The notes beneath the pieces were generated by a model. The model had not been told where the DNA came from. It was given only the letters and a program-made list of their open reading frames with translations, and did no database searches. From Eledone cirrhosa (taxonomy: Eukaryota), in the NCBI GenBank assembly GCA_964016885.1, contig OZ024743.1, positions 221,154,001 to 221,218,000 on the forward strand: a stretch of DNA of 64,000 bases. Reading direction: 5' to 3'. Shown one piece after another: positions 18,502 to 59,324 of this stretch (the stretch's first letter is position 1; each line of letters opens with the position of its first letter). The position numbers were made by a program, and so were the translations under genes.

Positions 18502-18536
18502 GTTTAAAATAGAGTGGAAAAGATGGGAAAGACCAC

Positions 18537-26714: not shown

Positions 26715-26765
26715 TTTTGTCTGATGAGGACGTACTGTTGTACATCCGAAATATGTATAATAAAA
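26715..26765 (+). ncRNA. type I hammerhead ribozyme (short helix III, PLE/retrozyme type)
   Basis: UUUUGU-CUGAUGA-GGACGUAC(UGUU)GUACAUCC-GAA-AUA(UG)UAU-A-AUAAAA. Helix I is 6 bp, the core is intact, helix II is 7 bp with one mismatch, helix III is 3 bp and the cleavage triplet is AUA. Confidence 0.8.
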
Positions 26766-26806
26766 TGTAATTGATCAAAAGAACATCTATTTTATTAATA
26801 CTTATA

Positions 26807-26845
<39 letters not shown>

Positions 26846-26955
26846 CGAAGGAAATGTGGTAAGGAACCAGATGGACCATAACGCATCAAAGTACTCAATA
26901 CTTAGGGTAGTAGAGTCGAAACGGCTTGAGCTCAGCCGTCGGGGTCCTACTCGTT

Positions 26956-35547: not shown

Positions 35548-35664
<117 letters not shown>

Positions 35665-35912
35665 ATAAACGTAGTTTTGTCTTTGCTTGTAATTGTTTTT
35701 CACCGCTCCAAATAATGACGTATTATATTTGTTTTTTCCCGTTCTTTGCCAGGGAACGTTCCCACGAACCAAAGTATCGTCTTCGCGTCTTCCTCCGGTT
35801 GCAACGTTTTTTTGAAATATTCACTTCTGCGTTCACAGATTGACTTTGTTACTTTCAGAAGATCCCGTTAAGGGTGAAAGCAGCGATTCTTTGCTTAAAC
35901 TTTAATCTGTTA

Positions 35913-35967
<55 letters not shown>

Positions 35968-35976
<9 letters not shown>

Positions 35977-36954
35977 TAAACAAATAATGAACAAACAATT
36001 CCTTATATTAAACAAAAAAAGTTCACTATTTAACGATCGTTTCTAGGGCATATATGTGCTATAATTGGTATGCATATTTAACAGATCTATGTACAAAATT
36101 ATACAAAATTATACAAATTATCAAGATTAAATATACATACCTAACTCATATATACGCCGTCTTCAGAAATAATGAAGTATATTTATTGATAATAACAACA
36201 ATTCAAAATATCAGTTCAAAATTGACCAATGAAAACACAAAGGGTTAAAAAGCAGTTTGGTGTGTGTATATACATGTAAAACCCTACACACATTTTACAA
36301 TAATGTGTGTATAATATGTATGTGCATACTAAAAAGATGGATGCAAATAAAAAATTTCAAGGTTAATATCTCTGTAAGCTTAATGCGCTGATAAGATACG
36401 CAATGATACTTATGTAGTCAAGCATATAAATATATTTTTTTCATACTCACACATATCAGTATAATCACACATACATGTGCGTATATATATAAATATACAC
36501 ATAACCACGAACACACAAACACACACACACACACACACCCCCCACTCACATTTATATATGTGGATATAAAATCATAAGCAAATAGAAATTAAGTCACTCA
36601 CATAAACACACTGGTACACACATTTCAAGATCAAGATACAGAAATTAGGTGGGAGGGGGGGGGGAGGGGTCAGTATTAGGTTGTCAGACCAGACAGCCTA
36701 ATATAAATGTATCTATAAATTATGAAAAATAAAAAAATAAAAACAATAAAATATATTACATATAATATAATGTACATACACATACAGATATACATACACA
36801 TACATACATGTACGCGCACATAGAGATATCTACACATACATACATACACACATACCTATACTGTCATACACACACATACATTTACACGAACATACACATA
36901 CACATATAAAAAGATAAAAATACGGACACACACACGCGCAACACATACACACAT

Positions 36955-36991
<37 letters not shown>

Positions 36992-37112
36992 TATACATAT
37001 ATATACACACACACACATAGACTCATATATATATACATACACATACATATACTTATACATAAACATATATATCCCACACTCATACCACCATGAAAACACA
37101 TACAAACATCCA

Positions 37113-37159
<47 letters not shown>

Positions 37160-37251
37160 ATACACACACGTACACATATATGCATATATACATACATATA
37201 TACACACATACACATATATATATATACACACACACATAAAATACAGACATG

Positions 37252-37282
<31 letters not shown>

Positions 37283-37374
37283 TTCATTACCCTTATATAT
37301 ACACATAGTATATATACATACACAACCTCACTTATACACATATACACATAAGTTATATTACAATAATAATAAAG

Positions 37375-37429
<55 letters not shown>

Positions 37430-37550
37430 TATACATACATACACATACATATACATACATACATACACATACATACATACACCTAAATATAAACATATAT
37501 AAATACACACATACGAATAAAGACATATATTCACACATAGACACCTATAT

Positions 37551-37588
<38 letters not shown>

Positions 37589-37677
37589 ATATACACACAC
37601 ATACACATACATACACATATATATATATATATACACATATATACACACGCACACACATACAGACACACATACACACT

Positions 37678-37718
<41 letters not shown>

Positions 37719-39347
37719 ATGTGAGTGTGCGCAAATACATACATATATATACACACACACATACAAACACACACAAACACATACATATGCATACATGCAC
37801 ACACACACACATATATCACATAGATACGAAGATACAGACACACATACACACTCACATATATATATATATATATATATATATGTGTATGTGAGTGTGCGCA
37901 AATACATACATATATATACACACACACATACAAACACACACAAACACATACATATGCATACATGCACACACACACACATATATCACATAGATACGAAGAT
38001 AAACATATAAATAGATAGACATACAAATATATACAGAACCCATATACACATACATGCAAACACGCATATACATATATACATATATACACACATATATATT
38101 CCTATATACAAGCATACACATACACACACATATATACATATACCTACACATATATATACCACACGTTCACATACACATACATATATAATACATATATATA
38201 CATACATATACATACATATGTATGTACAATCATATATACACACTCAATCTTACATTCATATTTACATGCTCATATATGTATTTTTATATCTAGAAATAAA
38301 TACCAAAAAAAAAAAAAAACTATATAGACACCCATCTACCCATATATTCATACATATACACTTACAAAAACAGATGATAATAGTATGGGGGAAAGGGGGG
38401 GGTTTGGAGAAGGGGATCAAAGTAAATATATGTTTCAAGAAACCTATAATATTTTCCATATCTTAATTCAATGTATGTTCTTACATATTTTCAATGCTAG
38501 GAAATACGAAATCTATGCATCACAAAATAAAAAAGTATACCATTAATCATATGTCAACTAAACCAAAGATAGTCAACATATTGATTTCCAAGGTGTAAAT
38601 TAGTTAGGTTTATAATATTTGAAGCAGAATTATGAAGTCAAACAGTAGTAGATTATAAATTACATTATAACTAAATTAAAGTTAATAATAGGGAAAAGAA
38701 ACCCAAATAAAAATAAAATAAAGTATTACATCGGTAGTAGCATATAAATTATATGTTAACTAAGTTAAAAATTATATATTTATTTCAATAGTATATGTTA
38801 ATTAGTATATGTTAATTAGGTATACAATACATAAAGCAGATATTGTATTTCATCAATAGCATAATATAATTATATGCAAATAAAAATCAAAATTAATACG
38901 CATACACATACATATACATACACATACACATACATATACATATACATACACATATATATATATATATATACATATATATACACACATACATACATATATA
39001 GTCACATAAATATACATACAGATACACATACAATACACACATATACATATACATATAGATATACATATCTTTTTCAAAAAATTTGCACAGAATATATTAA
39101 CTAGGTATATATCCAAAAACACCTCCCATTCTATGATTACATGAAATTCTGCAATTCGTCTGTACAAGGATACTAATTTTAAGCAAATTAAAATTAAAAT
39201 TAAAGTTTTAGGTTGATTAAAGCTAAAACCAAATAATAAATATATTTCCAAAATGTATATTAAATAGGTCAATAATACTAAAAATTCTTTCTCCGTCATA
39301 GGATACATGATATTATTTTGTTATATTTTATCTGTAAAAGAATTATA

Positions 39348-39388
<41 letters not shown>

Positions 39389-42300
39389 TAATAAAAGGTT
39401 AAACTAAATTAAAAAATTATAATAAAAGGTTAAAATAAGTTAAAATTAATCTATAAATTAAATTACTGAATATATATTATTAGTAATATTTAAAGGTTTT
39501 TCAAAATTAATGATTACATAATATTTTCTCATCTGTAATAAAATATTAATTAAATTAAATTTATAGGTTAACTAACATTTAAATTAAATTAAATTCTAGA
39601 ATAATGTTATTAATTAGGTTTATAATATTTAAATGTTTTTTTTAGTTTATGATTACACGATATAATTAATTCCTGTCTTTTATTTAATAAGATATCCCTA
39701 GACTTCATTATTTCAAATAGTTCTTGGGAACATAATCTACATTCCTTTCTATTATTTTGATAAGGGGTGGCTCTTTTGAGCACACTCCAGGTCAAATCAT
39801 ATTTTATATTTTTATTTTTATAACTATTGATTTTTTCTGCTAGAGATGTTGTATTAGCCAGTGCGGCATTTTTAAAGCTATGTTTGTGGGTATTATACCT
39901 TGTCTTAAAATTGTTAGAGGTAGCTCCTATATATGAGCAAATAGAATCTTTAGTTTTAACATTACATTTATAGACTATGTTGTTAACAAGACAATTCCCT
40001 TTTAATGGGCAGTTTGTTTTGTTTCTACAGTTACATCCTTTCGTTAATTCCGTATTTGAGGAGATATTATTGTTAATTTGATGTACTGGTGGTATACTTA
40101 TAGTTTTCTTACATTTATATGCATTATATGCACTTATATTTTGTTTTATGTTATTTGTTGTAGAATATGAGAATTTAACTGTAGACCTATTTAAGATTTG
40201 ATGGTATTTGTGGTTTGGCGGGAAGTTTTTCTCAAGGATATAAAAAAATTTTTTAGCAATATTATCCTTAACTTGTAAATTAAAAGGAGCATTATACCAA
40301 GTAACTCGTCTATTACGGTTTCTATGTTGTTTATTATTTTTATTATTTTTATATGTTGTATCATGATTTTTACTAGGAGGAATAATGTTAATGATCTCAC
40401 CACAACTATTTTTAGTTATATTTGTAGATTTAGGTGTTTTATCTTTTTTATTAGGAGTTTTATTATTAATATTTATTATAGTCTTATGATGAGTAGTTTT
40501 TTGAGGGTTACTATACTTTATATTAGAAGATTTAGTATTTTGGGGTATACTGTGGGTGGCATTTAGGTGTGTACCTTTCATTTGGTGTTTGTTGGTAATA
40601 TTATGCTGTATGTTTTCAGTATTTTTAGTAGAAGTTATATACTCTAATCTATTTTTGTGGCCACTTCTATCTAGAGCTTCATTATAAAAGGTCGCATTTT
40701 TATCAAATACATCTTGGTTAGAAGAAAGGTTAGAAATTCTAAGTGATATATTATATGCAAGGTTTTTAAGGATAGATTTAGGGTGATTAGATTGTGAGTG
40801 TATGTAATGTAAGTTTTGGTTAGGTTTATGGTAAGGTTGGTATATACCCGTAGCTAAATCTAAAGTTATATCTAGGAAATTTACTACTTTACTTGTTTTT
40901 TCAAAAGTAATATTAAGATTATAATAGTCCTTAAGGAAAGTTCTAATATGCTTTTTGTTTTTTTCGATTTCTGAAAGGCTAAGGTTGTTAGAAAGAAGAA
41001 GACAGTCATCACGATATAAACCACCTTTGAGGTGGGGAAAAGAGGCATTTATGTTGAAAAGGAGAAAGAGGCCCACAAGATCAGTAATTTGGGCAGAATC
41101 GCTTGAACCCATAGTAATATCAAAAAGATTACTATAAGTGTTTCTGGTCCAGTATTCATTCTGAAATTCAATAAGTGTTTGTCTAGCATGTGTAATAATG
41201 TTAATGTCATCCGAAGTTAAATTAGATCTATTTTTAGCAAAAATTAATGCTTTGTTCAGGAGTATGGGTGATATAGAAGAATAATAGTTATCTATATCAA
41301 ACTGTAGGAAAGAAGCAGAAGATTTACACCTAATATTTTTAAACCAATTAATTACCTGGGAGGTGTTTTCCCAGAGTGGTAAAATAACGTATTTTCTTAT
41401 TTGTGGGATGACTCTATCTAAAATTTTTTTGCTAATTATTCCAATATCTGATTTGGAGGGACATATAAGTCTAATAGAAGGATTAGAGTTAAAGTTAGAT
41501 TTGTGATCTTTCAGGTTGAAGTGTGGACTTCTCAATGCCAAAGGTTCAGTTCTATCTTCAATATTTAGTTTTTTTACTATGTTGTGTGTTTTGTTGTTGA
41601 TGTTGGTGAGTGACGCATTATTAGATTTTTTATAACTTTTTCTGAGTTCTTTATATATGAACTCATTATAATGTTCAATATCCATATGATACAAGTTACC
41701 AGTTTTGTCCGAGTGGACATGGATTTTTTTAGACTTTTTTAGGTCCAATAGGGTAGAATCAAGGTCCTTTTGAAAGACGGATTTATACTTTTTAAATTTG
41801 AGATGTTTAATTAAATTAAAAAGGTCTTTCTCGAAGTCTTCAAGTAAAAAGTTGTGTGGTGGATTCTTGTAAGTGTTGAAATCATACATATATTTCCGAT
41901 CTGCTTGTTTAGATTTTCTATCAAAGTGGTAGGCTCTCCATCTAACCCTTCTGATAAAATTATTAGTTTTCTGAATCATAAGGAGTAAGAAGTCGTCCTT
42001 AGAAGGTATTGGTATGTTTTTTAAGGAGGTTCCTAAATATTGTTTTTCCATTGTGATATGGATGATGGACAATTGAAAGAGCTCAACTAAATGTATATGG
42101 GTTTACAAAATCATACATATATATATGTATATACATAAATATAAAATTAATACACACATACAGTACAAAAATACGAATATTTCCGTGAAAATAGGAGCAA
42201 AATTATGTAGATAAATCTACCAAGAGTTTACGGTAGTGTCCAATCCGTATGAAGAACTCAATGTATTCCGGATATCATGGAAAGAAGAGATGTAATGAAA

Positions 42301-43328
42301 ATCAAATTTCGGTGAAAGATAAACGGTATACAGAGTCAAGATAAAATATTAAACAAATAATGAACAAACAATTCCTTATATTAAACAAAAAAAGTTCACT
42401 ATTTAACGATCGTTTCTAGGGCATATATGTGCTATAATTGGTATGCATATTTAACAGATCTATGTACAAAATTATACAAAATTATACAAATTATCAAGAT
42501 TAAATATACATACCTAACTCATATATACGCCGTCTTCAGAAATAATGAAGTATATTTATTGATAATAACAACAATTCAAAATATCAGTTCAAAATTGACC
42601 AATGAAAACACAAAGGGTTAAAAAGCAGTTTGGTGTGTGTATATACATGTAAAACCCTACACACATTTTACAATAATGTGTGTATAATATGTATGTGCAT
42701 ACTAAAAAGATGGATGCAAATAAAAAATTTCAAGGTTAATATCTCTGTAAGCTTAATGCGCTGATAAGATACGCAATGATACTTATGTAGTCAAGCATAT
42801 AAATATATTTTTTTCATACTCACACATATCAGTATAATCACACATACATGTGCGTATATATATAAATATACACATAACCACGAACACACAAACACACACA
42901 CACACACACACCCCCCACTCACATTTATATATGTGGATATAAAATCATAAGCAAATAGAAATTAAGTCACTCACATAAACACACTGGTACACACATTTCA
43001 AGATCAAGATACAGAAATTAGGTGGGAGGGGGGGGGGAGGGGTCAGTATTAGGTTGTCAGACCAGACAGCCTAATATAAATGTATCTATAAATTATGAAA
43101 AATAAAAAAATAAAAACAATAAAATATATTACATATAATATAATGTACATACGCATACAGATATACATACACATACATACATGTACGCGCACATAGAGAT
43201 ATCTACACATACATACATACACACATACCTATACTGTCATACACACACATACATTTACACGAACATACACATACACATATAAAAAGATAAAAATACGGAC
43301 ACACACACGCGCAACACATACACACATA

Positions 43329-43362
<34 letters not shown>

Positions 43363-43483
43363 TATACATATATATACACACACACACATAGACTCATATA
43401 TATATACATACACATACATATACTTATACATAAACATATATATCCCACACTCATACCACCATGAAAACACATACAAACATCCA

Positions 43484-43530
<47 letters not shown>

Positions 43531-43622
43531 ATACACACACGTACACATATATGCATATATACATACATATATACACACATACACATATATATATATACAC
43601 ACACACATAAAATACAGACATG

Positions 43623-43653
<31 letters not shown>

Positions 43654-43745
43654 TTCATTACCCTTATATATACACATAGTATATATACATACACAACCTC
43701 ACTTATACACATATACACATAAGTTATATTACAATAATAATAAAG

Positions 43746-43800
<55 letters not shown>

Positions 43801-43921
43801 TATACATACATACACATACATATACATACATACATACACATACATACATACACCTAAATATAAACATATATAAATACACACATACGAATAAAGACATATA
43901 TTCACACATAGACACCTATAT

Positions 43922-43959
<38 letters not shown>

Positions 43960-44048
43960 ATATACACACACATACACATACATACACATATATATATATA
44001 TATACACATATATACACACGCACACACATACAGACACACATACACACT

Positions 44049-44085
<37 letters not shown>

Positions 44086-45663
44086 ATGTGAGTGTGCGCA
44101 AATACATACATATATATACACACACACATACAAACACACACAAACACATACATATGCATACATGCACACACACACACATATATCACATAGATACGAAGAT
44201 ACAGACACACATACACACTCACATATATATATATATATATATATATATGTGTATGTGAGTGTGCGCAAATACATACATATATATACACACACACATACAA
44301 ACACACACAAACACATACATATGCATACATGCACACACACACACATATATCACATAGATACGAAGATAAACATATAAATAGATAGACATACAAATATATA
44401 CAGAACCCATATACACATACATGCAAACACGCATATACATATATACATATATACACACATATATATTCCTATATACAAGCATACACATACACACACATAT
44501 ATACATATACCTACACATATATATACCACACGTTCACATACACATACATATATAATACATATATATACACATACATATACATACATATGTATGTACAATC
44601 ATATATACACACTCAATCTTACATTCATATTTACATGCTCATATATGTATTTTTATATCTAGAAATAAATACCAAAAAAAAAAAAAACTATATAGACACC
44701 CATCTACCCATATATTCATACATATACACTTACAAAAACAGATGATAATAGTATGGGGGAAAGGGGGGGGTTTGGAGAAGGGGATCAAAGTAAATATATG
44801 TTTCAAGAAACCTATAATATTTTCCATATCTTAATTCAATGTATGTTCTTACATATTTTCAATGCTAGGAAATACGAAATCTATGCATCACAAAATAAAA
44901 AAGTATACCATTAATCATATGTCAACTAAACCAAAGATAGTCAACATATTGATTTCCAAGGTGTAAATTAGTTAGGTTTATAATATTTGAAGCAGAATTA
45001 TGAAGTCAAACAGTAGTAGATTATAAATTACATTATAACTAAATTAAAGTTAATAATAGGGAAAAGAAACCCAAATAAAAATAAAATAAAGTATTACATC
45101 GGTAGTAGCATATAAATTATATGTTAACTAAGTTAAAAATTATATATTTATTTCAATAGTATATGTTAATTAGTATATGTTAATTAGGTATACAATACAT
45201 AAAGCAGATATTGTATTTCATCAATAGCATAATATAATTATATGCAAATAAAAATCAAAATTAATACGCATACACATACATATACATACACATACACATA
45301 CATATACATATACATACACATATATATATATATATATATACATATATATACACACATACATACATATATAGTCACATAAATATACATACAGATACACATA
45401 CAATACACACATATACATATACATATAGATATACATATCTTTTTCAAAAAATTTGCACAGAATATATTAACTAGGTATATATCCAAAAACACCTCCCATT
45501 CTATGATTACATGAAATTCTGCAATTCGTCTGTACAAGGATACTAATTTTAAGCAAATTAAAATTAAAATTAAAGTTTTAGGTTGATTAAAGCTAAAACC
45601 AAATAATAAATATATTTCCAAAATGTATATTAAATAGGTCAATAATACTAAAAATTCTTTCTC
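35968..45663 (-). mobile_element. inverted arm of the Naiad-type PLE concatemer (~1.5 units)
   Basis: Reverse complement of the plus-strand units, with an internal period of 6373 bp (36054 versus 42427). Abuts (TA)n on the left. Confidence 0.93.
39610..42051 (-). CDS. Naiad-type PLE RT + GIY-YIG polyprotein, copy 1 (813 aa from ATG)
   Basis: Motifs SLKNIPIPS, FIRRVRWRA, SDKT, LKDHK, RLICPSKSDIG, FDIDNYYSSI, TMGS, LYRDD, NFLD, WYNAPF, CNCR..CPLKGNC, NIVYKC..SYIGAT, CRLC and LNKRQEL. Confidence 0.95.
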   Translation of the reverse strand: MEKQYLGTSLKNIPIPSKDDFLLLMIQKTNNFIRRVRWRAYHFDRKSKQADRKYMYDFNTYKNPPHNFLLEDFEKDLFNLIKHLKFKKYKSVFQKDLDSTLLDLKKSKKIHVHSDKTGNLYHMDIEHYNEFIYKELRKSYKKSNNASLTNINNKTHNIVKKLNIEDRTEPLALRSPHFNLKDHKSNFNSNPSIRLICPSKSDIGIISKKILDRVIPQIRKYVILPLWENTSQVINWFKNIRCKSSASFLQFDIDNYYSSISPILLNKALIFAKNRSNLTSDDINIITHARQTLIEFQNEYWTRNTYSNLFDITMGSSDSAQITDLVGLFLLFNINASFPHLKGGLYRDDCLLLSNNLSLSEIEKNKKHIRTFLKDYYNLNITFEKTSKVVNFLDITLDLATGIYQPYHKPNQNLHYIHSQSNHPKSILKNLAYNISLRISNLSSNQDVFDKNATFYNEALDRSGHKNRLEYITSTKNTENIQHNITNKHQMKGTHLNATHSIPQNTKSSNIKYSNPQKTTHHKTIININNKTPNKKDKTPKSTNITKNSCGEIINIIPPSKNHDTTYKNNKNNKQHRNRNRRVTWYNAPFNLQVKDNIAKKFFYILEKNFPPNHKYHQILNRSTVKFSYSTTNNIKQNISAYNAYKCKKTISIPPVHQINNNISSNTELTKGCNCRNKTNCPLKGNCLVNNIVYKCNVKTKDSICSYIGATSNNFKTRYNTHKHSFKNAALANTTSLAEKINSYKNKNIKYDLTWSVLKRATPYQNNRKECRLCSQELFEIMKSRDILLNKRQELIISCNHKLKKTFKYYKPN

Positions 45664-46493
45664 GTGGTTATGTGTATATTTATATATATACGCACATGTA
45701 TGTGTGATTATACTGATATGTGTGAGTATGAAAAAAATATATTTATATGCTTGACTACATAAGTATCATTGCGTATCTTATCAGCGCATTAAGCTTACAG
45801 AGATATTAACCTTGAAATTTTTTATTTGCATCCATCTTTTTAGTATGCACATACATATTATACACACATTATTGTAAAATGTGTGTAGGGTTTTACATGT
45901 ATATACACACACCAAACTGCTTTTTAACCCTTTGTGTTTTCATTGGTCAATTTTGAACTGATATTTTGAATTGTTGTTATTATCAATAAATATACTTCAT
46001 TATTTCTGAAGACGGCGTATATATGAGTTAGGTATGTATATTTAATCTTGATAATTTGTATAATTTTGTATAATTTTGTACATAGATCTGTTAAATATGC
46101 ATACCAATTATAGCACATATATGCCCTAGAAACGATCGTTAAATAGTGAACTTTTTTTGTTTAATATAAGGAATTGTTTGTTCATTATTTGTTTAATATT
46201 TTATCTTGACTCTGTATACCGTTTATCTTTCACCGAAATTTGATTTTCATTACATCTCTTCTTTCCATGATATCCGGAATACATTGAGTTCTTCATACGG
46301 ATTGGACACTACCGTAAACTCTTGGTAGATTTATCTACATAATTTTGCTCCTATTTTCACGGAAATATTCGTATTTTTGTACTGTATGTGTGTATTAATT
46401 TTATATTTATGTATATACATATATATATGTATGATTTTGTAAACCCATATACATTTAGTTGAGCTCTTTCAATTGTCCATCATCCATATCACA

Positions 46494-48935
46494 ATGGAAA
46501 AACAATATTTAGGAACCTCCTTAAAAAACATACCAATACCTTCTAAGGACGACTTCTTACTCCTTATGATTCAGAAAACTAATAATTTTATCAGAAGGGT
46601 TAGATGGAGAGCCTACCACTTTGATAGAAAATCTAAACAAGCAGATCGGAAATATATGTATGATTTCAACACTTACAAGAATCCACCACACAACTTTTTA
46701 CTTGAAGACTTCGAGAAAGACCTTTTTAATTTAATTAAACATCTCAAATTTAAAAAGTATAAATCCGTCTTTCAAAAGGACCTTGATTCTACCCTATTGG
46801 ACCTAAAAAAGTCTAAAAAAATCCATGTCCACTCGGACAAAACTGGTAACTTGTATCATATGGATATTGAACATTATAATGAGTTCATATATAAAGAACT
46901 CAGAAAAAGTTATAAAAAATCTAATAATGCGTCACTCACCAACATCAACAACAAAACACACAACATAGTAAAAAAACTAAATATTGAAGATAGAACTGAA
47001 CCTTTGGCATTGAGAAGTCCACACTTCAACCTGAAAGATCACAAATCTAACTTTAACTCTAATCCTTCTATTAGACTTATATGTCCCTCCAAATCAGATA
47101 TTGGAATAATTAGCAAAAAAATTTTAGATAGAGTCATCCCACAAATAAGAAAATACGTTATTTTACCACTCTGGGAAAACACCTCCCAGGTAATTAATTG
47201 GTTTAAAAATATTAGGTGTAAATCTTCTGCTTCTTTCCTACAGTTTGATATAGATAACTATTATTCTTCTATATCACCCATACTCCTGAACAAAGCATTA
47301 ATTTTTGCTAAAAATAGATCTAATTTAACTTCGGATGACATTAACATTATTACACATGCTAGACAAACACTTATTGAATTTCAGAATGAATACTGGACCA
47401 GAAACACTTATAGTAATCTTTTTGATATTACTATGGGTTCAAGCGATTCTGCCCAAATTACTGATCTTGTGGGCCTCTTTCTCCTTTTCAACATAAATGC
47501 CTCTTTTCCCCACCTCAAAGGTGGTTTATATCGTGATGACTGTCTTCTTCTTTCTAACAACCTTAGCCTTTCAGAAATCGAAAAAAACAAAAAGCATATT
47601 AGAACTTTCCTTAAGGACTATTATAATCTTAATATTACTTTTGAAAAAACAAGTAAAGTAGTAAATTTCCTAGATATAACTTTAGATTTAGCTACGGGTA
47701 TATACCAACCTTACCATAAACCTAACCAAAACTTACATTACATACACTCACAATCTAATCACCCTAAATCTATCCTTAAAAACCTTGCATATAATATATC
47801 ACTTAGAATTTCTAACCTTTCTTCTAACCAAGATGTATTTGATAAAAATGCGACCTTTTATAATGAAGCTCTAGATAGAAGTGGCCACAAAAATAGATTA
47901 GAGTATATAACTTCTACTAAAAATACTGAAAACATACAGCATAATATTACCAACAAACACCAAATGAAAGGTACACACCTAAATGCCACCCACAGTATAC
48001 CCCAAAATACTAAATCTTCTAATATAAAGTATAGTAACCCTCAAAAAACTACTCATCATAAGACTATAATAAATATTAATAATAAAACTCCTAATAAAAA
48101 AGATAAAACACCTAAATCTACAAATATAACTAAAAATAGTTGTGGTGAGATCATTAACATTATTCCTCCTAGTAAAAATCATGATACAACATATAAAAAT
48201 AATAAAAATAATAAACAACATAGAAACCGTAATAGACGAGTTACTTGGTATAATGCTCCTTTTAATTTACAAGTTAAGGATAATATTGCTAAAAAATTTT
48301 TTTATATCCTTGAGAAAAACTTCCCGCCAAACCACAAATACCATCAAATCTTAAATAGGTCTACAGTTAAATTCTCATATTCTACAACAAATAACATAAA
48401 ACAAAATATAAGTGCATATAATGCATATAAATGTAAGAAAACTATAAGTATACCACCAGTACATCAAATTAACAATAATATCTCCTCAAATACGGAATTA
48501 ACGAAAGGATGTAACTGTAGAAACAAAACAAACTGCCCATTAAAAGGGAATTGTCTTGTTAACAACATAGTCTATAAATGTAATGTTAAAACTAAAGATT
48601 CTATTTGCTCATATATAGGAGCTACCTCTAACAATTTTAAGACAAGGTATAATACCCACAAACATAGCTTTAAAAATGCCGCACTGGCTAATACAACATC
48701 TCTAGCAGAAAAAATCAATAGTTATAAAAATAAAAATATAAAATATGATTTGACCTGGAGTGTGCTCAAAAGAGCCACCCCTTATCAAAATAATAGAAAG
48801 GAATGTAGATTATGTTCCCAAGAACTATTTGAAATAATGAAGTCTAGGGATATCTTATTAAATAAAAGACAGGAATTAATTATATCGTGTAATCATAAAC
48901 TAAAAAAAACATTTAAATATTATAAACCTAATTAA
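46494..48935 (+). CDS. Naiad-type PLE RT + GIY-YIG polyprotein, copy 2
   Basis: Protein identical to copy 1 in the ORF track. First ATG at 46494. Confidence 0.95.
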   Translation: MEKQYLGTSLKNIPIPSKDDFLLLMIQKTNNFIRRVRWRAYHFDRKSKQADRKYMYDFNTYKNPPHNFLLEDFEKDLFNLIKHLKFKKYKSVFQKDLDSTLLDLKKSKKIHVHSDKTGNLYHMDIEHYNEFIYKELRKSYKKSNNASLTNINNKTHNIVKKLNIEDRTEPLALRSPHFNLKDHKSNFNSNPSIRLICPSKSDIGIISKKILDRVIPQIRKYVILPLWENTSQVINWFKNIRCKSSASFLQFDIDNYYSSISPILLNKALIFAKNRSNLTSDDINIITHARQTLIEFQNEYWTRNTYSNLFDITMGSSDSAQITDLVGLFLLFNINASFPHLKGGLYRDDCLLLSNNLSLSEIEKNKKHIRTFLKDYYNLNITFEKTSKVVNFLDITLDLATGIYQPYHKPNQNLHYIHSQSNHPKSILKNLAYNISLRISNLSSNQDVFDKNATFYNEALDRSGHKNRLEYITSTKNTENIQHNITNKHQMKGTHLNATHSIPQNTKSSNIKYSNPQKTTHHKTIININNKTPNKKDKTPKSTNITKNSCGEIINIIPPSKNHDTTYKNNKNNKQHRNRNRRVTWYNAPFNLQVKDNIAKKFFYILEKNFPPNHKYHQILNRSTVKFSYSTTNNIKQNISAYNAYKCKKTISIPPVHQINNNISSNTELTKGCNCRNKTNCPLKGNCLVNNIVYKCNVKTKDSICSYIGATSNNFKTRYNTHKHSFKNAALANTTSLAEKINSYKNKNIKYDLTWSVLKRATPYQNNRKECRLCSQELFEIMKSRDILLNKRQELIISCNHKLKKTFKYYKPN

Positions 48936-50214
48936 TAACATTATTCTAGAATTTAATTTAATTTAAATGTTAGTTAACCTATAAATTTAATTTAATTAAT
49001 ATTTTATTACAGATGAGAAAATATTATGTAATCATTAATTTTGAAAAACCTTTAAATATTACTAATAATATATATTCAGTAATTTAATTTATAGATTAAT
49101 TTTAACTTATTTTAACCTTTTATTATAATTTTTTAATTTAGTTTAACCTTTTATTATAAAATTTTTTTTTTTTTTTTTTTTTTTTTATTATAATTCTTTT
49201 ACAGATAAAATATAACAAAATAATATCATGTATCCTATGACGGAGAAAGAATTTTTAGTATTATTGACCTATTTAATATACATTTTGGAAATATATTTAT
49301 TATTTGGTTTTAGCTTTAATCAACCTAAAACTTTAATTTTAATTTTAATTTGCTTAAAATTAGTATCCTTGTACAGACGAATTGCAGAATTTCATGTAAT
49401 CATAGAATGGGAGGTGTTTTTGGATATATACCTAGTTAATATATTCTGTGCAAATTTTTTGAAAAAGATATGTATATCTATATGTATATGTATATGTGTG
49501 TATTGTATGTGTATCTGTATGTATATTTATGTGACTATATATGTATGTATGTGTGTATATATATGTATATATATATATATATATGTGTATGTATATGTAT
49601 ATGTATGTGTATGTGTATGTATATGTATGTGTATGCGTATTAATTTTGATTTTTATTTGCATATAATTATATTATGCTATTGATGAAATACAATATCTGC
49701 TTTATGTATTGTATACCTAATTAACATATACTAATTAACATATACTATTGAAATAAATATATAATTTTTAACTTAGTTAACATATAATTTATATGCTACT
49801 ACCGATGTAATACTTTATTTTATTTTTATTTGGGTTTCTTTTCCCTATTATTAACTTTAATTTAGTTATAATGTAATTTATAATCTACTACTGTTTGACT
49901 TCATAATTCTGCTTCAAATATTATAAACCTAACTAATTTACACCTTGGAAATCAATATGTTGACTATCTTTGGTTTAGTTGACATATGATTAATGGTATA
50001 CTTTTTTATTTTGTGATGCATAGATTTCGTATTTCCTAGCATTGAAAATATGTAAGAACATACATTGAATTAAGATATGGAAAATATTATAGGTTTCTTG
50101 AAACATATATTTACTTTGATCCCCTTCTCCAAACCCCCCCCTTTCCCCCATACTATTATCATCTGTTTTTGTAAGTGTATATGTATGAATATATGGGTAG
50201 ATGGGTGTCTATAT

Positions 50215-50247
<33 letters not shown>

Positions 50248-50832
50248 GTATTTATTTCTAGATATAAAAATACATATATGAGCATGTAAATATGAATGTA
50301 AGATTGAGTGTGTATATATGATTGTACATACATATGTATGTATATGTATGTATATATATGTATTATATATGTATGTGTATGTGAACGTGTGGTATATATA
50401 TGTGTAGGTATATGTATATATGTGTGTGTATGTGTATGCTTGTATATAGGAATATATATGTGTGTATATATGTATATATGTATATGCGTGTTTGCATGTA
50501 TGTGTATATGGGTTCTGTATATATTTGTATGTCTATCTATTTATATGTTTATCTTCGTATCTATGTGATATATGTGTGTGTGTGTGCATGTATGCATATG
50601 TATGTGTTTGTGTGTGTTTGTATGTGTGTGTGTATATATATGTATGTATTTGCGCACACTCACATACACATATATATATATATATATATATATATGTGAG
50701 TGTGTATGTGTGTCTGTATCTTCGTATCTATGTGATATATGTGTGTGTGTGTGCATGTATGCATATGTATGTGTTTGTGTGTGTTTGTATGTGTGTGTGT
50801 ATATATATGTATGTATTTGCGCACACTCACAT

Positions 50833-50869
<37 letters not shown>

Positions 50870-50958
50870 AGTGTGTATGTGTGTCTGTATGTGTGTGCGT
50901 GTGTATATATGTGTATATATATATATATATGTGTATGTATGTGTATGTGTGTGTATAT

Positions 50959-50996
<38 letters not shown>

Positions 50997-51117
50997 ATAT
51001 AGGTGTCTATGTGTGAATATATGTCTTTATTCGTATGTGTGTATTTATATATGTTTATATTTAGGTGTATGTATGTATGTGTATGTATGTATGTATATGT
51101 ATGTGTATGTATGTATA

Positions 51118-51172
<55 letters not shown>

Positions 51173-51264
51173 CTTTATTATTATTGTAATATAACTTATG
51201 TGTATATGTGTATAAGTGAGGTTGTGTATGTATATATACTATGTGTATATATAAGGGTAATGAA

Positions 51265-51295
<31 letters not shown>

Positions 51296-51387
51296 CATGT
51301 CTGTATTTTATGTGTGTGTGTATATATATATATGTGTATGTGTGTATATATGTATGTATATATGCATATATGTGTACGTGTGTGTAT

Positions 51388-51434
<47 letters not shown>

Positions 51435-51555
51435 TGGATGTTTGTATGTGTTTTCATGGTGGTATGAGTGTGGGATATATATGTTTATGTATAAGTATAT
51501 GTATGTGTATGTATATATATATGAGTCTATGTGTGTGTGTGTATATATATGTATA

Positions 51556-51589
<34 letters not shown>

Positions 51590-52868
51590 TATGTGTGTAT
51601 GTGTTGCGCGTGTGTGTGTCCGTATTTTTATCTTTTTATATGTGTATGTGTATGTTCGTGTAAATGTATGTGTGTGTATGACAGTATAGGTATGTGTGTA
51701 TGTATGTATGTGTAGATATCTCTATGTGCGCGTACATGTATGTATGTGTATGTATATCTGTATGCGTATGTACATTATATTATATGTAATATATTTTATT
51801 GTTTTTATTTTTTTATTTTTCATAATTTATAGATACATTTATATTAGGCTGTCTGGTCTGACAACCTAATACTGACCCCTCCCCCCCCCCCCTCCCACCT
51901 AATTTCTGTATCTTGATCTTGAAATGTGTGTACCAGTGTGTTTATGTGAGTGACTTAATTTCTATTTGCTTATGATTTTATATCCACATATATAAATGTG
52001 AGTGGGGGGTGTGTGTGTGTGTGTGTGTTTGTGTGTTCGTGGTTATGTGTATATTTATATATATACGCACATGTATGTGTGATTATACTGATATGTGTGA
52101 GTATGAAAAAAATATATTTATATGCTTGACTACATAAGTATCATTGCGTATCTTATCAGCGCATTAAGCTTACAGAGATATTAACCTTGAAATTTTTTAT
52201 TTGCATCCATCTTTTTAGTATGCACATACATATTATACACACATTATTGTAAAATGTGTGTAGGGTTTTACATGTATATACACACACCAAACTGCTTTTT
52301 AACCCTTTGTGTTTTCATTGGTCAATTTTGAACTGATATTTTGAATTGTTGTTATTATCAATAAATATACTTCATTATTTCTGAAGACGGCGTATATATG
52401 AGTTAGGTATGTATATTTAATCTTGATAATTTGTATAATTTTGTATAATTTTGTACATAGATCTGTTAAATATGCATACCAATTATAGCACATATATGCC
52501 CTAGAAACGATCGTTAAATAGTGAACTTTTTTTGTTTAATATAAGGAATTGTTTGTTCATTATTTGTTTAATATTTTATCTTGACTCTGTATACCGTTTA
52601 TCTTTCACCGAAATTGGATTTTCATTACATCTCTTCTTTCCATGATATCCGGAATACATTGAGTTCTTCATACGGATTGGACACTACCGTAAACTCTTGG
52701 TAGATTTATCTACATAATTTTGCTCCTATTTTCACGGAAATATTCGTATTTTTGTACTGTATGTGTGTATTAATTTTATATTTATGTATATACATATATA
52801 TATGTATGATTTTGTAAACCCATATACATTTAGTTGAGCTCTTTCAATTGTCCATCATCCATATCACA

Positions 52869-55310
52869 ATGGAAAAACAATATTTAGGAACCTCCTTAAA
52901 AAACATACCAATACCTTCTAAGGACGACTTCTTACTCCTTATGATTCAGAAAACTAATAATTTTATCAGAAGGGTTAGATGGAGAGCCTACCACTTTGAT
53001 AGAAAATCTAAACAAGCAGATCGGAAATATATGTATGATTTCAACACTTACAAGAATCCACCACACAACTTTTTACTTGAAGACTTCGAGAAAGACCTTT
53101 TTAATTTAATTAAACATCTCAAATTTAAAAAGTATAAATCCGTCTTTCAAAAGGACCTTGATTCTACCCTATTGGACCTAAAAAAGTCTAAAAAAATCCA
53201 TGTCCACTCGGACAAAACTGGTAACTTGTATCATATGGATATTGAACATTATAATGAGTTCATATATAAAGAACTCAGAAAAAGTTATAAAAAATCTAAT
53301 AATGCGTCACTCACCAACATCAACAACAAAACACACAACATAGTAAAAAAACTAAATATTGAAGATAGAACTGAACCTTTGGCATTGAGAAGTCCACACT
53401 TCAACCTGAAAGATCACAAATCTAACTTTAACTCTAATCCTTCTATTAGACTTATATGTCCCTCCAAATCAGATATTGGAATAATTAGCAAAAAAATTTT
53501 AGATAGAGTCATCCCACAAATAAGAAAATACGTTATTTTACCACTCTGGGAAAACACCTCCCAGGTAATTAATTGGTTTAAAAATATTAGGTGTAAATCT
53601 TCTGCTTCTTTCCTACAGTTTGATATAGATAACTATTATTCTTCTATATCACCCATACTCCTGAACAAAGCATTAATTTTTGCTAAAAATAGATCTAATT
53701 TAACTTCGGATGACATTAACATTATTACACATGCTAGACAAACACTTATTGAATTTCAGAATGAATACTGGACCAGAAACACTTATAGTAATCTTTTTGA
53801 TATTACTATGGGTTCAAGCGATTCTGCCCAAATTACTGATCTTGTGGGCCTCTTTCTCCTTTTCAACATAAATGCCTCTTTTCCCCACCTCAAAGGTGGT
53901 TTATATCGTGATGACTGTCTTCTTCTTTCTAACAACCTTAGCCTTTCAGAAATCGAAAAAAACAAAAAGCATATTAGAACTTTCCTTAAGGACTATTATA
54001 ATCTTAATATTACTTTTGAAAAAACAAGTAAAGTAGTAAATTTCCTAGATATAACTTTAGATTTAGCTACGGGTATATACCAACCTTACCATAAACCTAA
54101 CCAAAACTTACATTACATACACTCACAATCTAATCACCCTAAATCTATCCTTAAAAACCTTGCATATAATATATCACTTAGAATTTCTAACCTTTCTTCT
54201 AACCAAGATGTATTTGATAAAAATGCGACCTTTTATAATGAAGCTCTAGATAGAAGTGGCCACAAAAATAGATTAGAGTATATAACTTCTACTAAAAATA
54301 CTGAAAACATACAGCATAATATTACCAACAAACACCAAATGAAAGGTACACACCTAAATGCCACCCACAGTATACCCCAAAATACTAAATCTTCTAATAT
54401 AAAGTATAGTAACCCTCAAAAAACTACTCATCATAAGACTATAATAAATATTAATAATAAAACTCCTAATAAAAAAGATAAAACACCTAAATCTACAAAT
54501 ATAACTAAAAATAGTTGTGGTGAGATCATTAACATTATTCCTCCTAGTAAAAATCATGATACAACATATAAAAATAATAAAAATAATAAACAACATAGAA
54601 ACCGTAATAGACGAGTTACTTGGTATAATGCTCCTTTTAATTTACAAGTTAAGGATAATATTGCTAAAAAATTTTTTTATATCCTTGAGAAAAACTTCCC
54701 GCCAAACCACAAATACCATCAAATCTTAAATAGGTCTACAGTTAAATTCTCATATTCTACAACAAATAACATAAAACAAAATATAAGTGCATATAATGCA
54801 TATAAATGTAAGAAAACTATAAGTATACCACCAGTACATCAAATTAACAATAATATCTCCTCAAATACGGAATTAACGAAAGGATGTAACTGTAGAAACA
54901 AAACAAACTGCCCATTAAAAGGGAATTGTCTTGTTAACAACATAGTCTATAAATGTAATGTTAAAACTAAAGATTCTATTTGCTCATATATAGGAGCTAC
55001 CTCTAACAATTTTAAGACAAGGTATAATACCCACAAACATAGCTTTAAAAATGCCGCACTGGCTAATACAACATCTCTAGCAGAAAAAATCAATAGTTAT
55101 AAAAATAAAAATATAAAATATGATTTGACCTGGAGTGTGCTCAAAAGAGCCACCCCTTATCAAAATAATAGAAAGGAATGTAGATTATGTTCCCAAGAAC
55201 TATTTGAAATAATGAAGTCTAGGGATATCTTATTAAATAAAAGACAGGAATTAATTATATCGTGTAATCATAAACTAAAAAAAACATTTAAATATTATAA
55301 ACCTAATTAA
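52869..55310 (+). CDS. Naiad-type PLE RT + GIY-YIG polyprotein, copy 3
   Basis: Protein identical to copies 1 and 2 in the ORF track. Confidence 0.95.
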   Translation: MEKQYLGTSLKNIPIPSKDDFLLLMIQKTNNFIRRVRWRAYHFDRKSKQADRKYMYDFNTYKNPPHNFLLEDFEKDLFNLIKHLKFKKYKSVFQKDLDSTLLDLKKSKKIHVHSDKTGNLYHMDIEHYNEFIYKELRKSYKKSNNASLTNINNKTHNIVKKLNIEDRTEPLALRSPHFNLKDHKSNFNSNPSIRLICPSKSDIGIISKKILDRVIPQIRKYVILPLWENTSQVINWFKNIRCKSSASFLQFDIDNYYSSISPILLNKALIFAKNRSNLTSDDINIITHARQTLIEFQNEYWTRNTYSNLFDITMGSSDSAQITDLVGLFLLFNINASFPHLKGGLYRDDCLLLSNNLSLSEIEKNKKHIRTFLKDYYNLNITFEKTSKVVNFLDITLDLATGIYQPYHKPNQNLHYIHSQSNHPKSILKNLAYNISLRISNLSSNQDVFDKNATFYNEALDRSGHKNRLEYITSTKNTENIQHNITNKHQMKGTHLNATHSIPQNTKSSNIKYSNPQKTTHHKTIININNKTPNKKDKTPKSTNITKNSCGEIINIIPPSKNHDTTYKNNKNNKQHRNRNRRVTWYNAPFNLQVKDNIAKKFFYILEKNFPPNHKYHQILNRSTVKFSYSTTNNIKQNISAYNAYKCKKTISIPPVHQINNNISSNTELTKGCNCRNKTNCPLKGNCLVNNIVYKCNVKTKDSICSYIGATSNNFKTRYNTHKHSFKNAALANTTSLAEKINSYKNKNIKYDLTWSVLKRATPYQNNRKECRLCSQELFEIMKSRDILLNKRQELIISCNHKLKKTFKYYKPN

Positions 55311-57188
55311 TAACATTATTCTAGAATTTAATTTAATTTAAATGTTAGTTAACCTATAAATTTAATTTAATTAATATTTTATTACAGATGAGAAAATATT
55401 ATGTAATCATTAATTTTGAAAAACCTTTAAATATTACTAATAATATATATTCAGTAATTTAATTTATAGATTAATTTTAACTTATTTTAACCTTTTATTA
55501 TAATTTTTTAATTTAGTTTAACCTTTTATTATAAAATTTTTTTTTTTTTTTTTTTTTTATTATAATTCTTTTACAGATAAAATATAACAAAATAATATCA
55601 TGTATCCTATGACGGAGAAAGAATTTTTAGTATTATTGACCTATTTAATATACATTTTGGAAATATATTTATTATTTGGTTTTAGCTTTAATCAACCTAA
55701 AACTTTAATTTTAATTTTAATTTGCTTAAAATTAGTATCCTTGTACAGACGAATTGCAGAATTTCATGTAATCATAGAATGGGAGGTGTTTTTGGATATA
55801 TACCTAGTTAATATATTCTGTGCAAATTTTTTGAAAAAGATATGTATATCTATATGTATATGTATATGTGTGTATTGTATGTGTATCTGTATGTATATTT
55901 ATGTGACTATATATGTATGTATGTGTGTATATATATGTATATATATATATATATATGTGTATGTATATGTATATGTATGTGTATGTGTATGTATATGTAT
56001 GTGTATGCGTATTAATTTTGATTTTTATTTGCATATAATTATATTATGCTATTGATGAAATACAATATCTGCTTTATGTATTGTATACCTAATTAACATA
56101 TACTAATTAACATATACTATTGAAATAAATATATAATTTTTAACTTAGTTAACATATAATTTATATGCTACTACCGATGTAATACTTTATTTTATTTTTA
56201 TTTGGGTTTCTTTTCCCTATTATTAACTTTAATTTAGTTATAATGTAATTTATAATCTACTACTGTTTGACTTCATAATTCTGCTTCAAATATTATAAAC
56301 CTAACTAATTTACACCTTGGAAATCAATATGTTGACTATCTTTGGTTTAGTTGACATATGATTAATGGTATACTTTTTTATTTTGTGATGCATAGATTTC
56401 GTATTTCCTAGCATTGAAAATATGTAAGAACATACATTGAATTAAGATATGGAAAATATTATAGGTTTCTTGAAACATATATTTACTTTGATCCCCTTCT
56501 CCAAACCCCCCCCTTTCCCCCATACTATTATCATCTGTTTTTGTAAGTGTATATGTATGAATATATGGGTAGATGGGTGTCTATATAGTTTTTTTTTTTT
56601 TTGGTATTTATTTCTAGATATAAAAATACATATATGAGCATGTAAATATGAATGTAAGATTGAGTGTGTATATATGATTGTACATACATATGTATGTATA
56701 TGTATGTATATATATGTATTATATATGTATGTGTATGTGAACGTGTGGTATATATATGTGTAGGTATATGTATATATGTGTGTGTATGTGTATGCTTGTA
56801 TATAGGAATATATATGTGTGTATATATGTATATATGTATATGCGTGTTTGCATGTATGTGTATATGGGTTCTGTATATATTTGTATGTCTATCTATTTAT
56901 ATGTTTATCTTCGTATCTATGTGATATATGTGTGTGTGTGTGCATGTATGCATATGTATGTGTTTGTGTGTGTTTGTATGTGTGTGTGTATATATATGTA
57001 TGTATTTGCGCACACTCACATACACATATATATATATATATATATATATATGTGAGTGTGTATGTGTGTCTGTATCTTCGTATCTATGTGATATATGTGT
57101 GTGTGTGTGCATGTATGCATATGTATGTGTTTGTGTGTGTTTGTATGTGTGTGTGTATATATATGTATGTATTTGCGCACACTCACAT

Positions 57189-57225
<37 letters not shown>

Positions 57226-57314
57226 AGTGTGTATGTGTGTCTGTATGTGTGTGCGTGTGTATATATGTGTATATATATATATATATGTGTATGTATGTGT
57301 ATGTGTGTGTATAT

Positions 57315-57352
<38 letters not shown>

Positions 57353-57473
57353 ATATAGGTGTCTATGTGTGAATATATGTCTTTATTCGTATGTGTGTAT
57401 TTATATATGTTTATATTTAGGTGTATGTATGTATGTGTATGTATGTATGTATATGTATGTGTATGTATGTATA

Positions 57474-57528
<55 letters not shown>

Positions 57529-57620
57529 CTTTATTATTATTGTAATATAACTTATGTGTATATGTGTATAAGTGAGGTTGTGTATGTATATATACTATGT
57601 GTATATATAAGGGTAATGAA

Positions 57621-57651
<31 letters not shown>

Positions 57652-57743
57652 CATGTCTGTATTTTATGTGTGTGTGTATATATATATATGTGTATGTGTG
57701 TATATATGTATGTATATATGCATATATGTGTACGTGTGTGTAT

Positions 57744-57790
<47 letters not shown>

Positions 57791-57911
57791 TGGATGTTTG
57801 TATGTGTTTTCATGGTGGTATGAGTGTGGGATATATATGTTTATGTATAAGTATATGTATGTGTATGTATATATATATGAGTCTATGTGTGTGTGTGTAT
57901 ATATATGTATA

Positions 57912-57945
<34 letters not shown>

Positions 57946-59065
57946 TATGTGTGTATGTGTTGCGCGTGTGTGTGTCCGTATTTTTATCTTTTTATATGTG
58001 TATGTGTATGTTCGTGTAAATGTATGTGTGTGTATGACAGTATAGGTATGTGTGTATGTATGTATGTGTAGATATCTCTATGTGCGCGTACATGTATGTA
58101 TGTGTATGTATATCTGTATGCGTATGTACATTATATTATATGTAATATATTTTATTGTTTTTATTTTTTTATTTTTCATAATTTATAGATACATTTATAT
58201 TAGGCTGTCTGGTCTGACAACCTAATACTGACCCCTCCCCCCCCCCCTCCCACCTAATTTCTGTATCTTGATCTTGAAATGTGTGTACCAGTGTGTTTAT
58301 GTGAGTGACTTAATTTCTATTTGCTTATGATTTTATATCCACATATATAAATGTGAGTGGGGGGTGTGTGTGTGTGTGTGTGTTTGTGTGTTCGTGGTTA
58401 TGTGTATATTTATATATATACGCACATGTATGTGTGATTATACTGATATGTGTGAGTATGAAAAAAATATATTTATATGCTTGACTACATAAGTATCATT
58501 GCGTATCTTATCAGCGCATTAAGCTTACAGAGATATTAACCTTGAAATTTTTTATTTGCATCCATCTTTTTAGTATGCACATACATATTATACACACATT
58601 ATTGTAAAATGTGTGTAGGGTTTTACATGTATATACACACACCAAACTGCTTTTTAACCCTTTGTGTTTTCATTGGTCAATTTTGAACTGATATTTTGAA
58701 TTGTTGTTATTATCAATAAATATACTTCATTATTTCTGAAGACGGCGTATATATGAGTTAGGTATGTATATTTAATCTTGATAATTTGTATAATTTTGTA
58801 TAATTTTGTACATAGATCTGTTAAATATGCATACCAATTATAGCACATATATGCCCTAGAAACGATCGTTAAATAGTGAACTTTTTTTGTTTAATATAAG
58901 GAATTGTTTGTTCATTATTTGTTTAATATTTTATCTTGACTCTGTATACCGTTTATCTTTCACCGAAATTGGATTTTCATTACATCTCTTCTTTCCATGA
59001 TATCCGGAATACATTGAGTTCTTCATACGGATTGGACACTACCGTAAACTCTTGGTAGATTTATC

Positions 59066-59109
<44 letters not shown>

Positions 59110-59324
59110 TATGTCATTTATTTTGTCTGACCTGTTTAGCTTGACTTGTTTTTTGGCTTAGGTGGTTTATGGCTTCTTGACCGCCTTCTCAGTTTGTATG
59201 GCCTTTATAACCTATGTTTATTGCTCTGGTCTTTTTTAGCCCATGGAGCGCTTGCCAGCATGACTCGGAATTTGCGCTTCGTTTGGCTTTTTCTACCCGC
59301 TGAAATGCGATTCTCGCTGAATTT

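Follow-up and report, generated by a model that had tools for sequence, protein, structure and literature searches.

How Penelope-like elements (PLEs), the sister group of telomerase, choose the site at which reverse transcription starts, and why the tail at their ends is optional, are questions on which one biochemical study has shown two internal start sites but no general signal. That study was carried out on PAc, which is found in the green anole and belongs to the Poseidon elements (Frangieh et al., 2024; PMC11167929). Its reverse transcriptase (RT) begins synthesis inside the RNA, at two positions between which the tail lies, and an AT-rich target is cut and extended on both of its DNA strands. 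The reaction requires RNA 3' of these positions and no hammerhead cleavage, and the protein is predicted to form a dimer. The start sites of PAc are found in an AC-rich stem-loop within the ORF. Elements of another clade, Hydra, insert into (TA)n, have units of less than 3 kb in tandem and inverted arrangement, carry a sense-strand hammerhead in the pLTR, and encode an RT followed by an endonuclease with the diagnostic motifs RW[K/R], DKT, CxCX5C, CxxC, and CxH (Craig et al., 2021; PMC8557442, section 11). Naiads are described in the same paper as having an N-terminal endonuclease, a DKA motif, and no canonical hammerhead. The type I hammerheads of PLEs combine a CUGANGA/GAAA core and an open helix I with a short palindromic helix III that is predicted to need dimer formation, and minimal forms cleave weakly, as dimers (Cervera and De la Pena, 2014; PMC4209133).

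The window analyzed here, a stretch of 64,000 nucleotides from the genome of Eledone cirrhosa, contains a complex PLE insertion that had been attributed to a Naiad element. Self-alignment and junction sequences show an inverted arm (35968-45663, minus strand, equivalent to 49243-58934) that is fused, in head-to-head orientation, with a direct arm (45662-59071), which consists of tandem units; (TA)n is found on both flanks of the insertion. Each unit has about 6.36 kb, including a long simple-repeat 3' UTR, and thus differs from the shorter published Hydra units. The main coding features are:

35968..59071: complex insertion in (TA)n, Penelope-like element of the Hydra clade
46494..48935 (+): 813-aa ORF, RT followed by a C-terminal GIY-YIG-type endonuclease
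52869..55310 (+): 813-aa ORF of the direct arm, with motif positions read from the protein
39610..42051 (-): 813-aa ORF of the inverted arm

The order of the protein motifs does not agree with the Naiad label. The RT motifs come first (KNIP at 11, RWR at 37, SDKTG at 114, LYRDD at 345), followed by CNCRNKTNC at 673, VY..YIG at about 693-709, and CRLC..E..N..CNH at 771-801, with the VY..YIG..R..H endonuclease motif lying within the last 130 residues. RWR, which recurs in the closest homologs, takes the place of the RWK of Hydra elements, SDKTG contains the DKT, CNCRNKTNC is the CxCX5C linker, and the CxxC and CxH that flank the conserved E and N are present as well. A CCHH finger is absent, as there is no CxxC between VY and YIG; the two isolated cysteines in this interval are not kept in the homologs printed. 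Of 40 aligned relatives, 8 had a weak Pfam match to GIY-YIG (best E 0.0037), Pfam gave neither this match nor any other annotation for the window protein itself, positions 194-373 of the 707 in the family profile weakly match a solved RT (E 0.022), and the viral contigs searched contained no relatives of the element. With Naiads, the element shares the (TA)n targets, the pLTR, the tail, and the inverted arm, but its endonuclease motifs (673-801) follow the RT motifs (114, 345) instead of preceding them, it has SDKTG in place of DKA, and a hammerhead is present. Naiad membership was therefore rejected. Based on these motifs, together with (TA)n insertion and the pLTR hammerhead, we assign the element to the Hydra clade with its C-terminal endonuclease, of which it is a new member. 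In the E. cirrhosa genome, one hammerhead pattern has 9,255 exact matches and a tail pattern 7,733, and 40 of the copies listed are 100% identical to the last 172 nt of the window, which indicates that the family of the 813-aa ORF is recently active.

The original prediction let the insertion end right behind a GC-richer island, and the island (GC 0.37 vs 0.26 for the unit) as well as the end in (TA)n at 59071 are real, but this is only one of two ends, and the other, at 58934, is as common:

58934 (+): short 3' end, followed after 4 nt by the ACUC of a stem termed M1; its counterpart at the left edge of the insertion is 35968
59071 (+): long 3' end, equivalent to 52716, 46341, and 42204, 5 nt before the GCUC of a stem termed M2 in tandem units
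58935..59071 (+): optional 137-nt tail between both ends
58729 (+): 5'-end hot spot of the short copies, preceding the hammerhead core by 7 nt, with AATAAA at 58715-58720

These positions were compared in 93 copies, the first places listed for the hammerhead pattern among its 9,255 matches, all on one contig and chosen irrespective of their ends. The equivalent of 58934 is the end in 44 copies and that of 59071 in 35, whereas 3 copies are continued by a tandem unit, 4 are truncated within the tail, and 7 are unclassified; several of the latter look short by eye, and about four of the "short" calls have no TA thereafter. Head-to-head neighbors within 12 kb (27 pairs from these 93 listed copies) are long+short in 16 cases and never long+long, with 5 long+unclassified, 3 short+short, 2 long+tandem, and 1 short+partial among the others. 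When 30 copies were anchored at the tail, 27 ended in a TA/TC repeat, two ran into a tandem unit, and one behaved differently. The tail itself, with its 137 nt, exceeds the 30-40 bp that are given for PLEs (Craig et al., 2021).

The region 58990-59070 at the long end had been proposed to fold into two hairpins with kissing loops that act as an undescribed processing ribozyme, as an RT-binding signal, or as a conformational switch with a competing fold. All motifs on which this was based are in place, and the copies in the tandem units start at 46264, 52639, and 58994 on the plus strand and at 42281 on the minus strand. The two hairpins are also the minimum-energy fold of the isolated region, but with -14.7 kcal/mol (z -0.75) they are no better than shuffled sequences, 42 of 200 of which fold as well, and a 5-nt Watson-Crick complement between loops arises in 12-14% of shuffled loops of the same size and composition. 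Pattern searches yielded diverged subfamilies of the same genome, and from 60 distinct tails we selected 27 that represent the subfamilies and aligned them. The AACUC of the second loop is present in 5 of the 27, all from the subfamily of the window, pairing is kept by wobbles in 2 more, and the motif is replaced or deleted in the remaining 20, which belong to subfamilies C and B. In subfamily B, two pairs in the inner part of helix 1 are broken, and the "competing" UACGG/CCGUA helix loses two pairs as well; none of the 19 pairs of the kissing fold has a two-sided change in the 27 tails. Once the 60 nt upstream were included and the whole tail was folded, the pair probability of helix 1 was 0.0 in all eight copies, and an Rfam search, which the original prediction had suggested, gave no relevant match in 51900-59300 or 58650-59075. 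The kissing loop, helix 1, and the competing fold, and with the latter the conformational switch, thus had to be rejected on the basis of the subfamily comparison and the folding in context. What RNAalifold retains is the second hairpin and a pairing of GACUC (58938-58942) with GAGUU (59016-59020):

59039..59058 (+): spacer hairpin CUACCG/UGGUAG, the second helix of the proposed fold, retained by RNAalifold

In this spacer hairpin, 99% of the alignment cells are paired in all subfamilies, with one-sided changes only, and the loop varies in length and sequence. The GAGUU that had been placed in a kissing loop pairs instead with the GACUC 70 nt upstream, and the resulting structure recurs just past the long end. 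The idea of an RT-binding signal that defines the end is therefore supported in spirit, but the signal is a different structure, formed as follows:

58938..59020 (+): stem M1, also from 46208 and 52583 (+) and from 42337 (-)
58938-58942 with 59016-59020 (+): M1 arms GACUC and GAGUU, with a UU bulge at 59014-59015
58943-58946 with 59010-59013 (+): M1 inner pairs, UGUA with UACA, enclosing an inner span of 71 nt
52722..52839 (+): stem M2, located in the 5' UTR of the unit that follows, also from 46347 (+) and from 42198 (-)
52722-52725 with 52836-52839 (+): M2 arms GCUC and GAGC, with a UU bulge at 52834-52835
52831-52833 (+): UAG of M2, forming the inner pairs with CUA and enclosing an inner span of 108 nt

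M2 is confined to tandem junctions and lacking in terminal copies; its arms are kept in subfamilies A, B, and C, with inner spans of 36-108 nt. The pair probability of M1 was 0.75-0.99 in 7 of 8 copies folded, whereas that of M2 was 0.07 in the full fold from the cut to the ATG and reached 0.82-1.0 only when the sequence was trimmed to the arms. Within its own family, M1 lacks two-sided changes, and 16 of the 27 copies cannot form one inner pair.

The same stem is found throughout the relatives of the element. From metagenomes, we obtained 77 loci with 34-43% protein identity, which form 63 clusters, and 39 of these have enough DNA upstream of the ORF. A pattern defined by sequence only, GCUC-N6..20-NN-GAGCnC, has 64 instances upstream of the ORF in 37 of the 39 families and none in 63,987 nt of ORF bodies. 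In 63 of the 64 stems, the first inner pair forms only with the 2-nt bulge (C-G in 41, U-A in 20), and it is a Watson-Crick pair in 61 of the 64, as compared with a mean of 33.8 and a maximum of 49 in 20,000 shuffles. Inner pairs 2 and 3, which lie outside the search requirement, form in 38 of 58 and 27 of 36 cases, with shuffle means of 23 and 15, and inner pair 4 shows no excess. The four outer pairs hardly vary, and the changes in the covarying pair mostly follow the difference between M1 and M2, so that its covariation may rest on few events. At least two matches to a looser descriptor occur in 27 of the 39 families, with a spacing of 57-83 nt from M1 to M2; a reverse-complement control of this descriptor scores 31/49 because the arms are an inverted repeat, and hence it is no test of the strand. 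TAT or ATA is found within 10 nt upstream in 50 of the 64 stems, as a raw count. A covariance model built from the clade, R1, gave 124 matches; the 71 loci concerned are for the most part those on which it was trained, and we did not rely on the pair counts of the R1-fitted alignment, as these lean towards the model.

The position relative to the ends is also maintained. Of 13 mapped ends in the metagenome families, 9 precede a stem by 0-4 nt (M1 in 5 cases, M2 in 4) and 4 do not fit, and in a sister family of the same genome with about 47% protein identity, 17 ends lie just before M1 and 19 just before M2, the latter counted apart from 17 tandem junctions at the M2 site. By eye, the stem can also be recognized in Hydra consensi from the literature: Hydra-1_Ajap has two at its start, Hydra-2_Ajap and Hydra-2_Amil have one each, and Hydra-1_Crog and Hydra-1_Obim have variants (Craig et al., 2021). 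The window stems deviate in one respect: their inner spans of 71 and 108 nt exceed the 6-17 nt of the clade and thus the short span by which the other stems are defined, and model R1 misses both. They agree with the clade in their RCUC/GAGY arms, the 2-nt 3' bulge, the paired first inner base, and a start 0-5 nt after an end, and the first inner pair is U-A in M1 and C-G in M2, as in 19 of 29 and 32 of 34 clade stems, respectively. The spacer between the end of M1 and M2 measures 57 nt, compared with 36-59 nt in the clade. We therefore assign M1 and M2 of the window to the clade stem by arm sequence and position. The clade, the tail, and the two start sites were already known, but the text of Craig et al. 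(2021) mentions no hairpin and does not describe twin stems, Rfam had no twin-stem match with a gathering score or a significant E-value in eight metagenome loci, and our literature searches, with subscription papers and Repbase notes outside their scope, found no account of such a stem. The twin stem is thus apparently an undescribed cis-element of a known clade.

The kissing-loop structure had been proposed to stand where other PLEs have hammerheads, and it had been stated that the sense strand contains no CUGANGA...GAAA hammerhead. A descriptor search now identified such a motif, which covaries:

58726..58880 (+): type I hammerhead motif (descriptor search)
58726-58735 with 58871-58880 (+): helix I, 10 bp
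58736-58742 (+): core CUGAAGA
58743-58858 (+): helix II, 116 nt, with C·A at its base
58859-58862 (+): GAAA
58863-58868 (+): palindromic CGAUCG, with the predicted cut after U58870
46006 and 52381 (+), 42539 and 36166 (-): other hammerhead cores

The complete type I motif is present in all five pLTR copies of the window, and four copies from different subfamilies fold with z values of -4.2 to -6.5. In an alignment of 23 copies, 91% of the cells pair, the core letters are invariant or nearly so, and 6 of 19 pairs show two-sided changes, four of them in helix II, so that helices I and II covary; none of 500 shuffles reaches the observed covariation score, a result that is inflated by the kinship of the sequences. 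With its CUGANGA/GAAA core, an NUH site, and helices I-III, the region 58726-58880 is a predicted type I hammerhead ribozyme, and a new processing ribozyme in its place is not supported. The motif was overlooked because helix II is 116 nt long. It shares the open helix I and the short palindromic helix III of other type I PLE hammerheads, but helix II is a roughly 45-bp interrupted hairpin, with C·A at the base instead of G-C (Cervera and De la Pena, 2014). Published Hydra hammerheads have about 9-26 nt between CUGA.. and GAAA and likewise contain mismatches at the helix II base (supplement file S2 of Craig et al., 2021), and the core search in that study allowed a spacer of up to 17 nt. Standard descriptors of this kind miss real PLE hammerheads with a long helix II.

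Helix II contains, at 58761-58816, a sequence GTATGT...TGAT...TTTACATAG that is kept in all subfamilies. GTATGT...TTTACATAG resembles an intron of 42-54 nt, although such an intron is probably too short. We set the intron (GTATGT..CATAG) aside, as GUAUG also pairs in the stem, and the sequence may have a structural or promoter role instead.

Although a hammerhead is present, it does not appear to generate the ends. Among 82 copies with an intact core, a count that includes both arms of a pair, 45 stop within about 9 nt of the core, and 22 of them exactly 7 nt upstream of it, at the equivalent of 58729. In the 30 tail-anchored copies, seven 5' ends coincide with this hot spot and none with the predicted cut, and hammerhead cleavage was therefore rejected as the source of the 5' ends. 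The location of the 5' ends 7 nt upstream of the core, together with their absence at the cut, suggests a run-off from the 5' end of an uncleaved RNA, for which 58729 is a candidate transcript start; the templates appear to be uncleaved. At five loci (L103, L112, L115, L116, and L163), this 5' end of a short copy is joined to the 3' end of another repeat, which suggests template switching.

We consider it likely that the stems, RCUC…YY-GAGY, position the RT for internal starts, each stem lying 4-5 nt downstream of an end, and thus are putative start-site signals. A transcript from the pLTR would carry the hammerhead, M1, the spacer, M2, and the ORF, and the RT-endonuclease, probably as a dimer, would bind M1 and M2. 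According to the PLE literature and the target sequence found here, the endonuclease would nick (TA)n on both strands, and the nicked ends could then pair with the AU-rich bases just 5' of the stems to prime cDNA synthesis there. The expected product is what is seen as a pattern: two arms inserted head-to-head, one with a short and the other with a long end, the tail corresponding to the interval from M1 to M2. Synthesis of cDNAs primed at the 5' copy of the stems would end by run-off where the RNA begins, at about 58729, which would account for the many copies of 200-340 nt. More tentative, and in our opinion a serious possibility, is the further proposal that the RNA stem is duplicated to serve each subunit of a dimeric RT-endonuclease, so that two internal priming sites are fixed and both (TA)n strands prime on one RNA. 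One stem per subunit would account for the optional tail and for the inverted long+short doublets, and, with M2 existing only at tandem junctions, also for the need for tandem copies. The Eledone element would resemble PAc in its two internal start sites bounding the tail, in the cutting and extension of both strands of an AT-rich target, in the dispensable hammerhead, and in the requirement for 3' RNA. PAc differs in that it belongs to another clade, and no conserved or duplicated stem is described in the published account, whereas the Eledone ends each have their own stem just 3' of them, in the 5' UTR; in the printed PAc template no such stem was seen, and a text search of the supplement was also empty (Frangieh et al., 2024). 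If the proposal is true, the twin stem is a portable tag of 25 nt for an internal, telomerase-like template selection. A small, duplicated stem that dozens of families share and that keeps a fixed distance to both ends is a precise target for mutations, and for annotation, twin stems predict ends and tails.

The stems could also act as DNA, forming hairpins in single-stranded cDNA or donor DNA that the endonuclease recognizes and cuts beside, thereby resolving an intermediate at two sites. The tail has been ascribed to endonuclease-mediated resolution (Craig et al., 2021) and is needed for the recognition of plasmid DNA by the Penelope endonuclease, as cited by Frangieh et al. (2024), and the pairing itself does not distinguish RNA from single-stranded DNA: GCTC/GAGC is an inverted repeat on both strands, and with 10 G·U vs 8 A·C at inner pairs 2-4, RNA is not favored. 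However, arm spacings of 6 to 108 nt exclude a double-stranded site, M2 is absent from terminal copies, and the ends of PAc match RT start sites on RNA (Frangieh et al., 2024), and we regard this explanation as unlikely. Alternatively, the stems could mark sites of RNA processing, with a host or element nuclease cutting just 5' of them and end-primed reverse transcription from the new 3' ends. Precise ends at a fixed distance from the stem would be expected in this case, and RNA-seq reads do end at both PAc sites, but PAc initiates internally on an uncut template in vitro (Frangieh et al., 2024), and processing by itself does not produce one long and one short end, as seen in 16 long+short pairs and no long+long pair. 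We find it improbable. Very improbable is the assumption that the stems function in expression of the ORF, be it at the level of transcription, splicing, or translation, and that AU-rich microhomology to (TA)n alone sets the ends. It would agree with the position of both stems in the 5' UTR, where the internal promoter of Penelope is located (Craig et al., 2021), and with the AU-rich bases before them, but the pLTR has many other TA-rich stretches, and yet 79 of the 93 listed copies end at two sites, and the offset between end and stem holds across unrelated families. We give almost no credence to a kissing-loop ribozyme or switch at 58994-59058 that makes the 3' end in place of a hammerhead, as the minimum-energy fold of the isolated 81 nt and the complementary loops of the window's subfamily are outweighed by the shuffle comparisons, the subfamily alignment, the folding in context, the hammerhead, and the missing Rfam match described above.

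Further PLE ends and repeats were noted. The (TA)n that hosts the 35968-59071 insertion flanks the 3' end of a sister Hydra-clade family (713-aa ORF, loci L031-L060) at 35660-35920 (+), which has a hammerhead-like core CAGAAGA..GAAA. A third Hydra-clade family of E. cirrhosa (L201-L230) encodes 758 aa and has a compact hammerhead and an ACUC/GAGU stem, and three of four terminal copies seen end 5 nt before this stem. Tandem arrays at L085-L089 consist of a unit of about 283 bp derived from subfamily B, with M1, the spacer, M2, and the ORF start, and without the hammerhead. The window contains a second type I hammerhead at 26711-26816 (+), a compact one with CUGAUGA at 26721, which belongs to another family and ends in (TA)n. 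We take 6200-7587 to be a broken PLE with a CxxxxCxxC linker, 11335-14725 a broken RT-encoding non-LTR element, and 15082-20633 on the minus strand an apparently intact two-ORF LINE. Model R1 detected bulged ACUC/GAGU stems at 24228-24265 (+, E 2.7), 24774-24809 (-, E 0.008), and 26887-26922 (-, E 0.1), and these stems, in short islands that end in (TA)n, are probably the ends of other Hydra-clade families.
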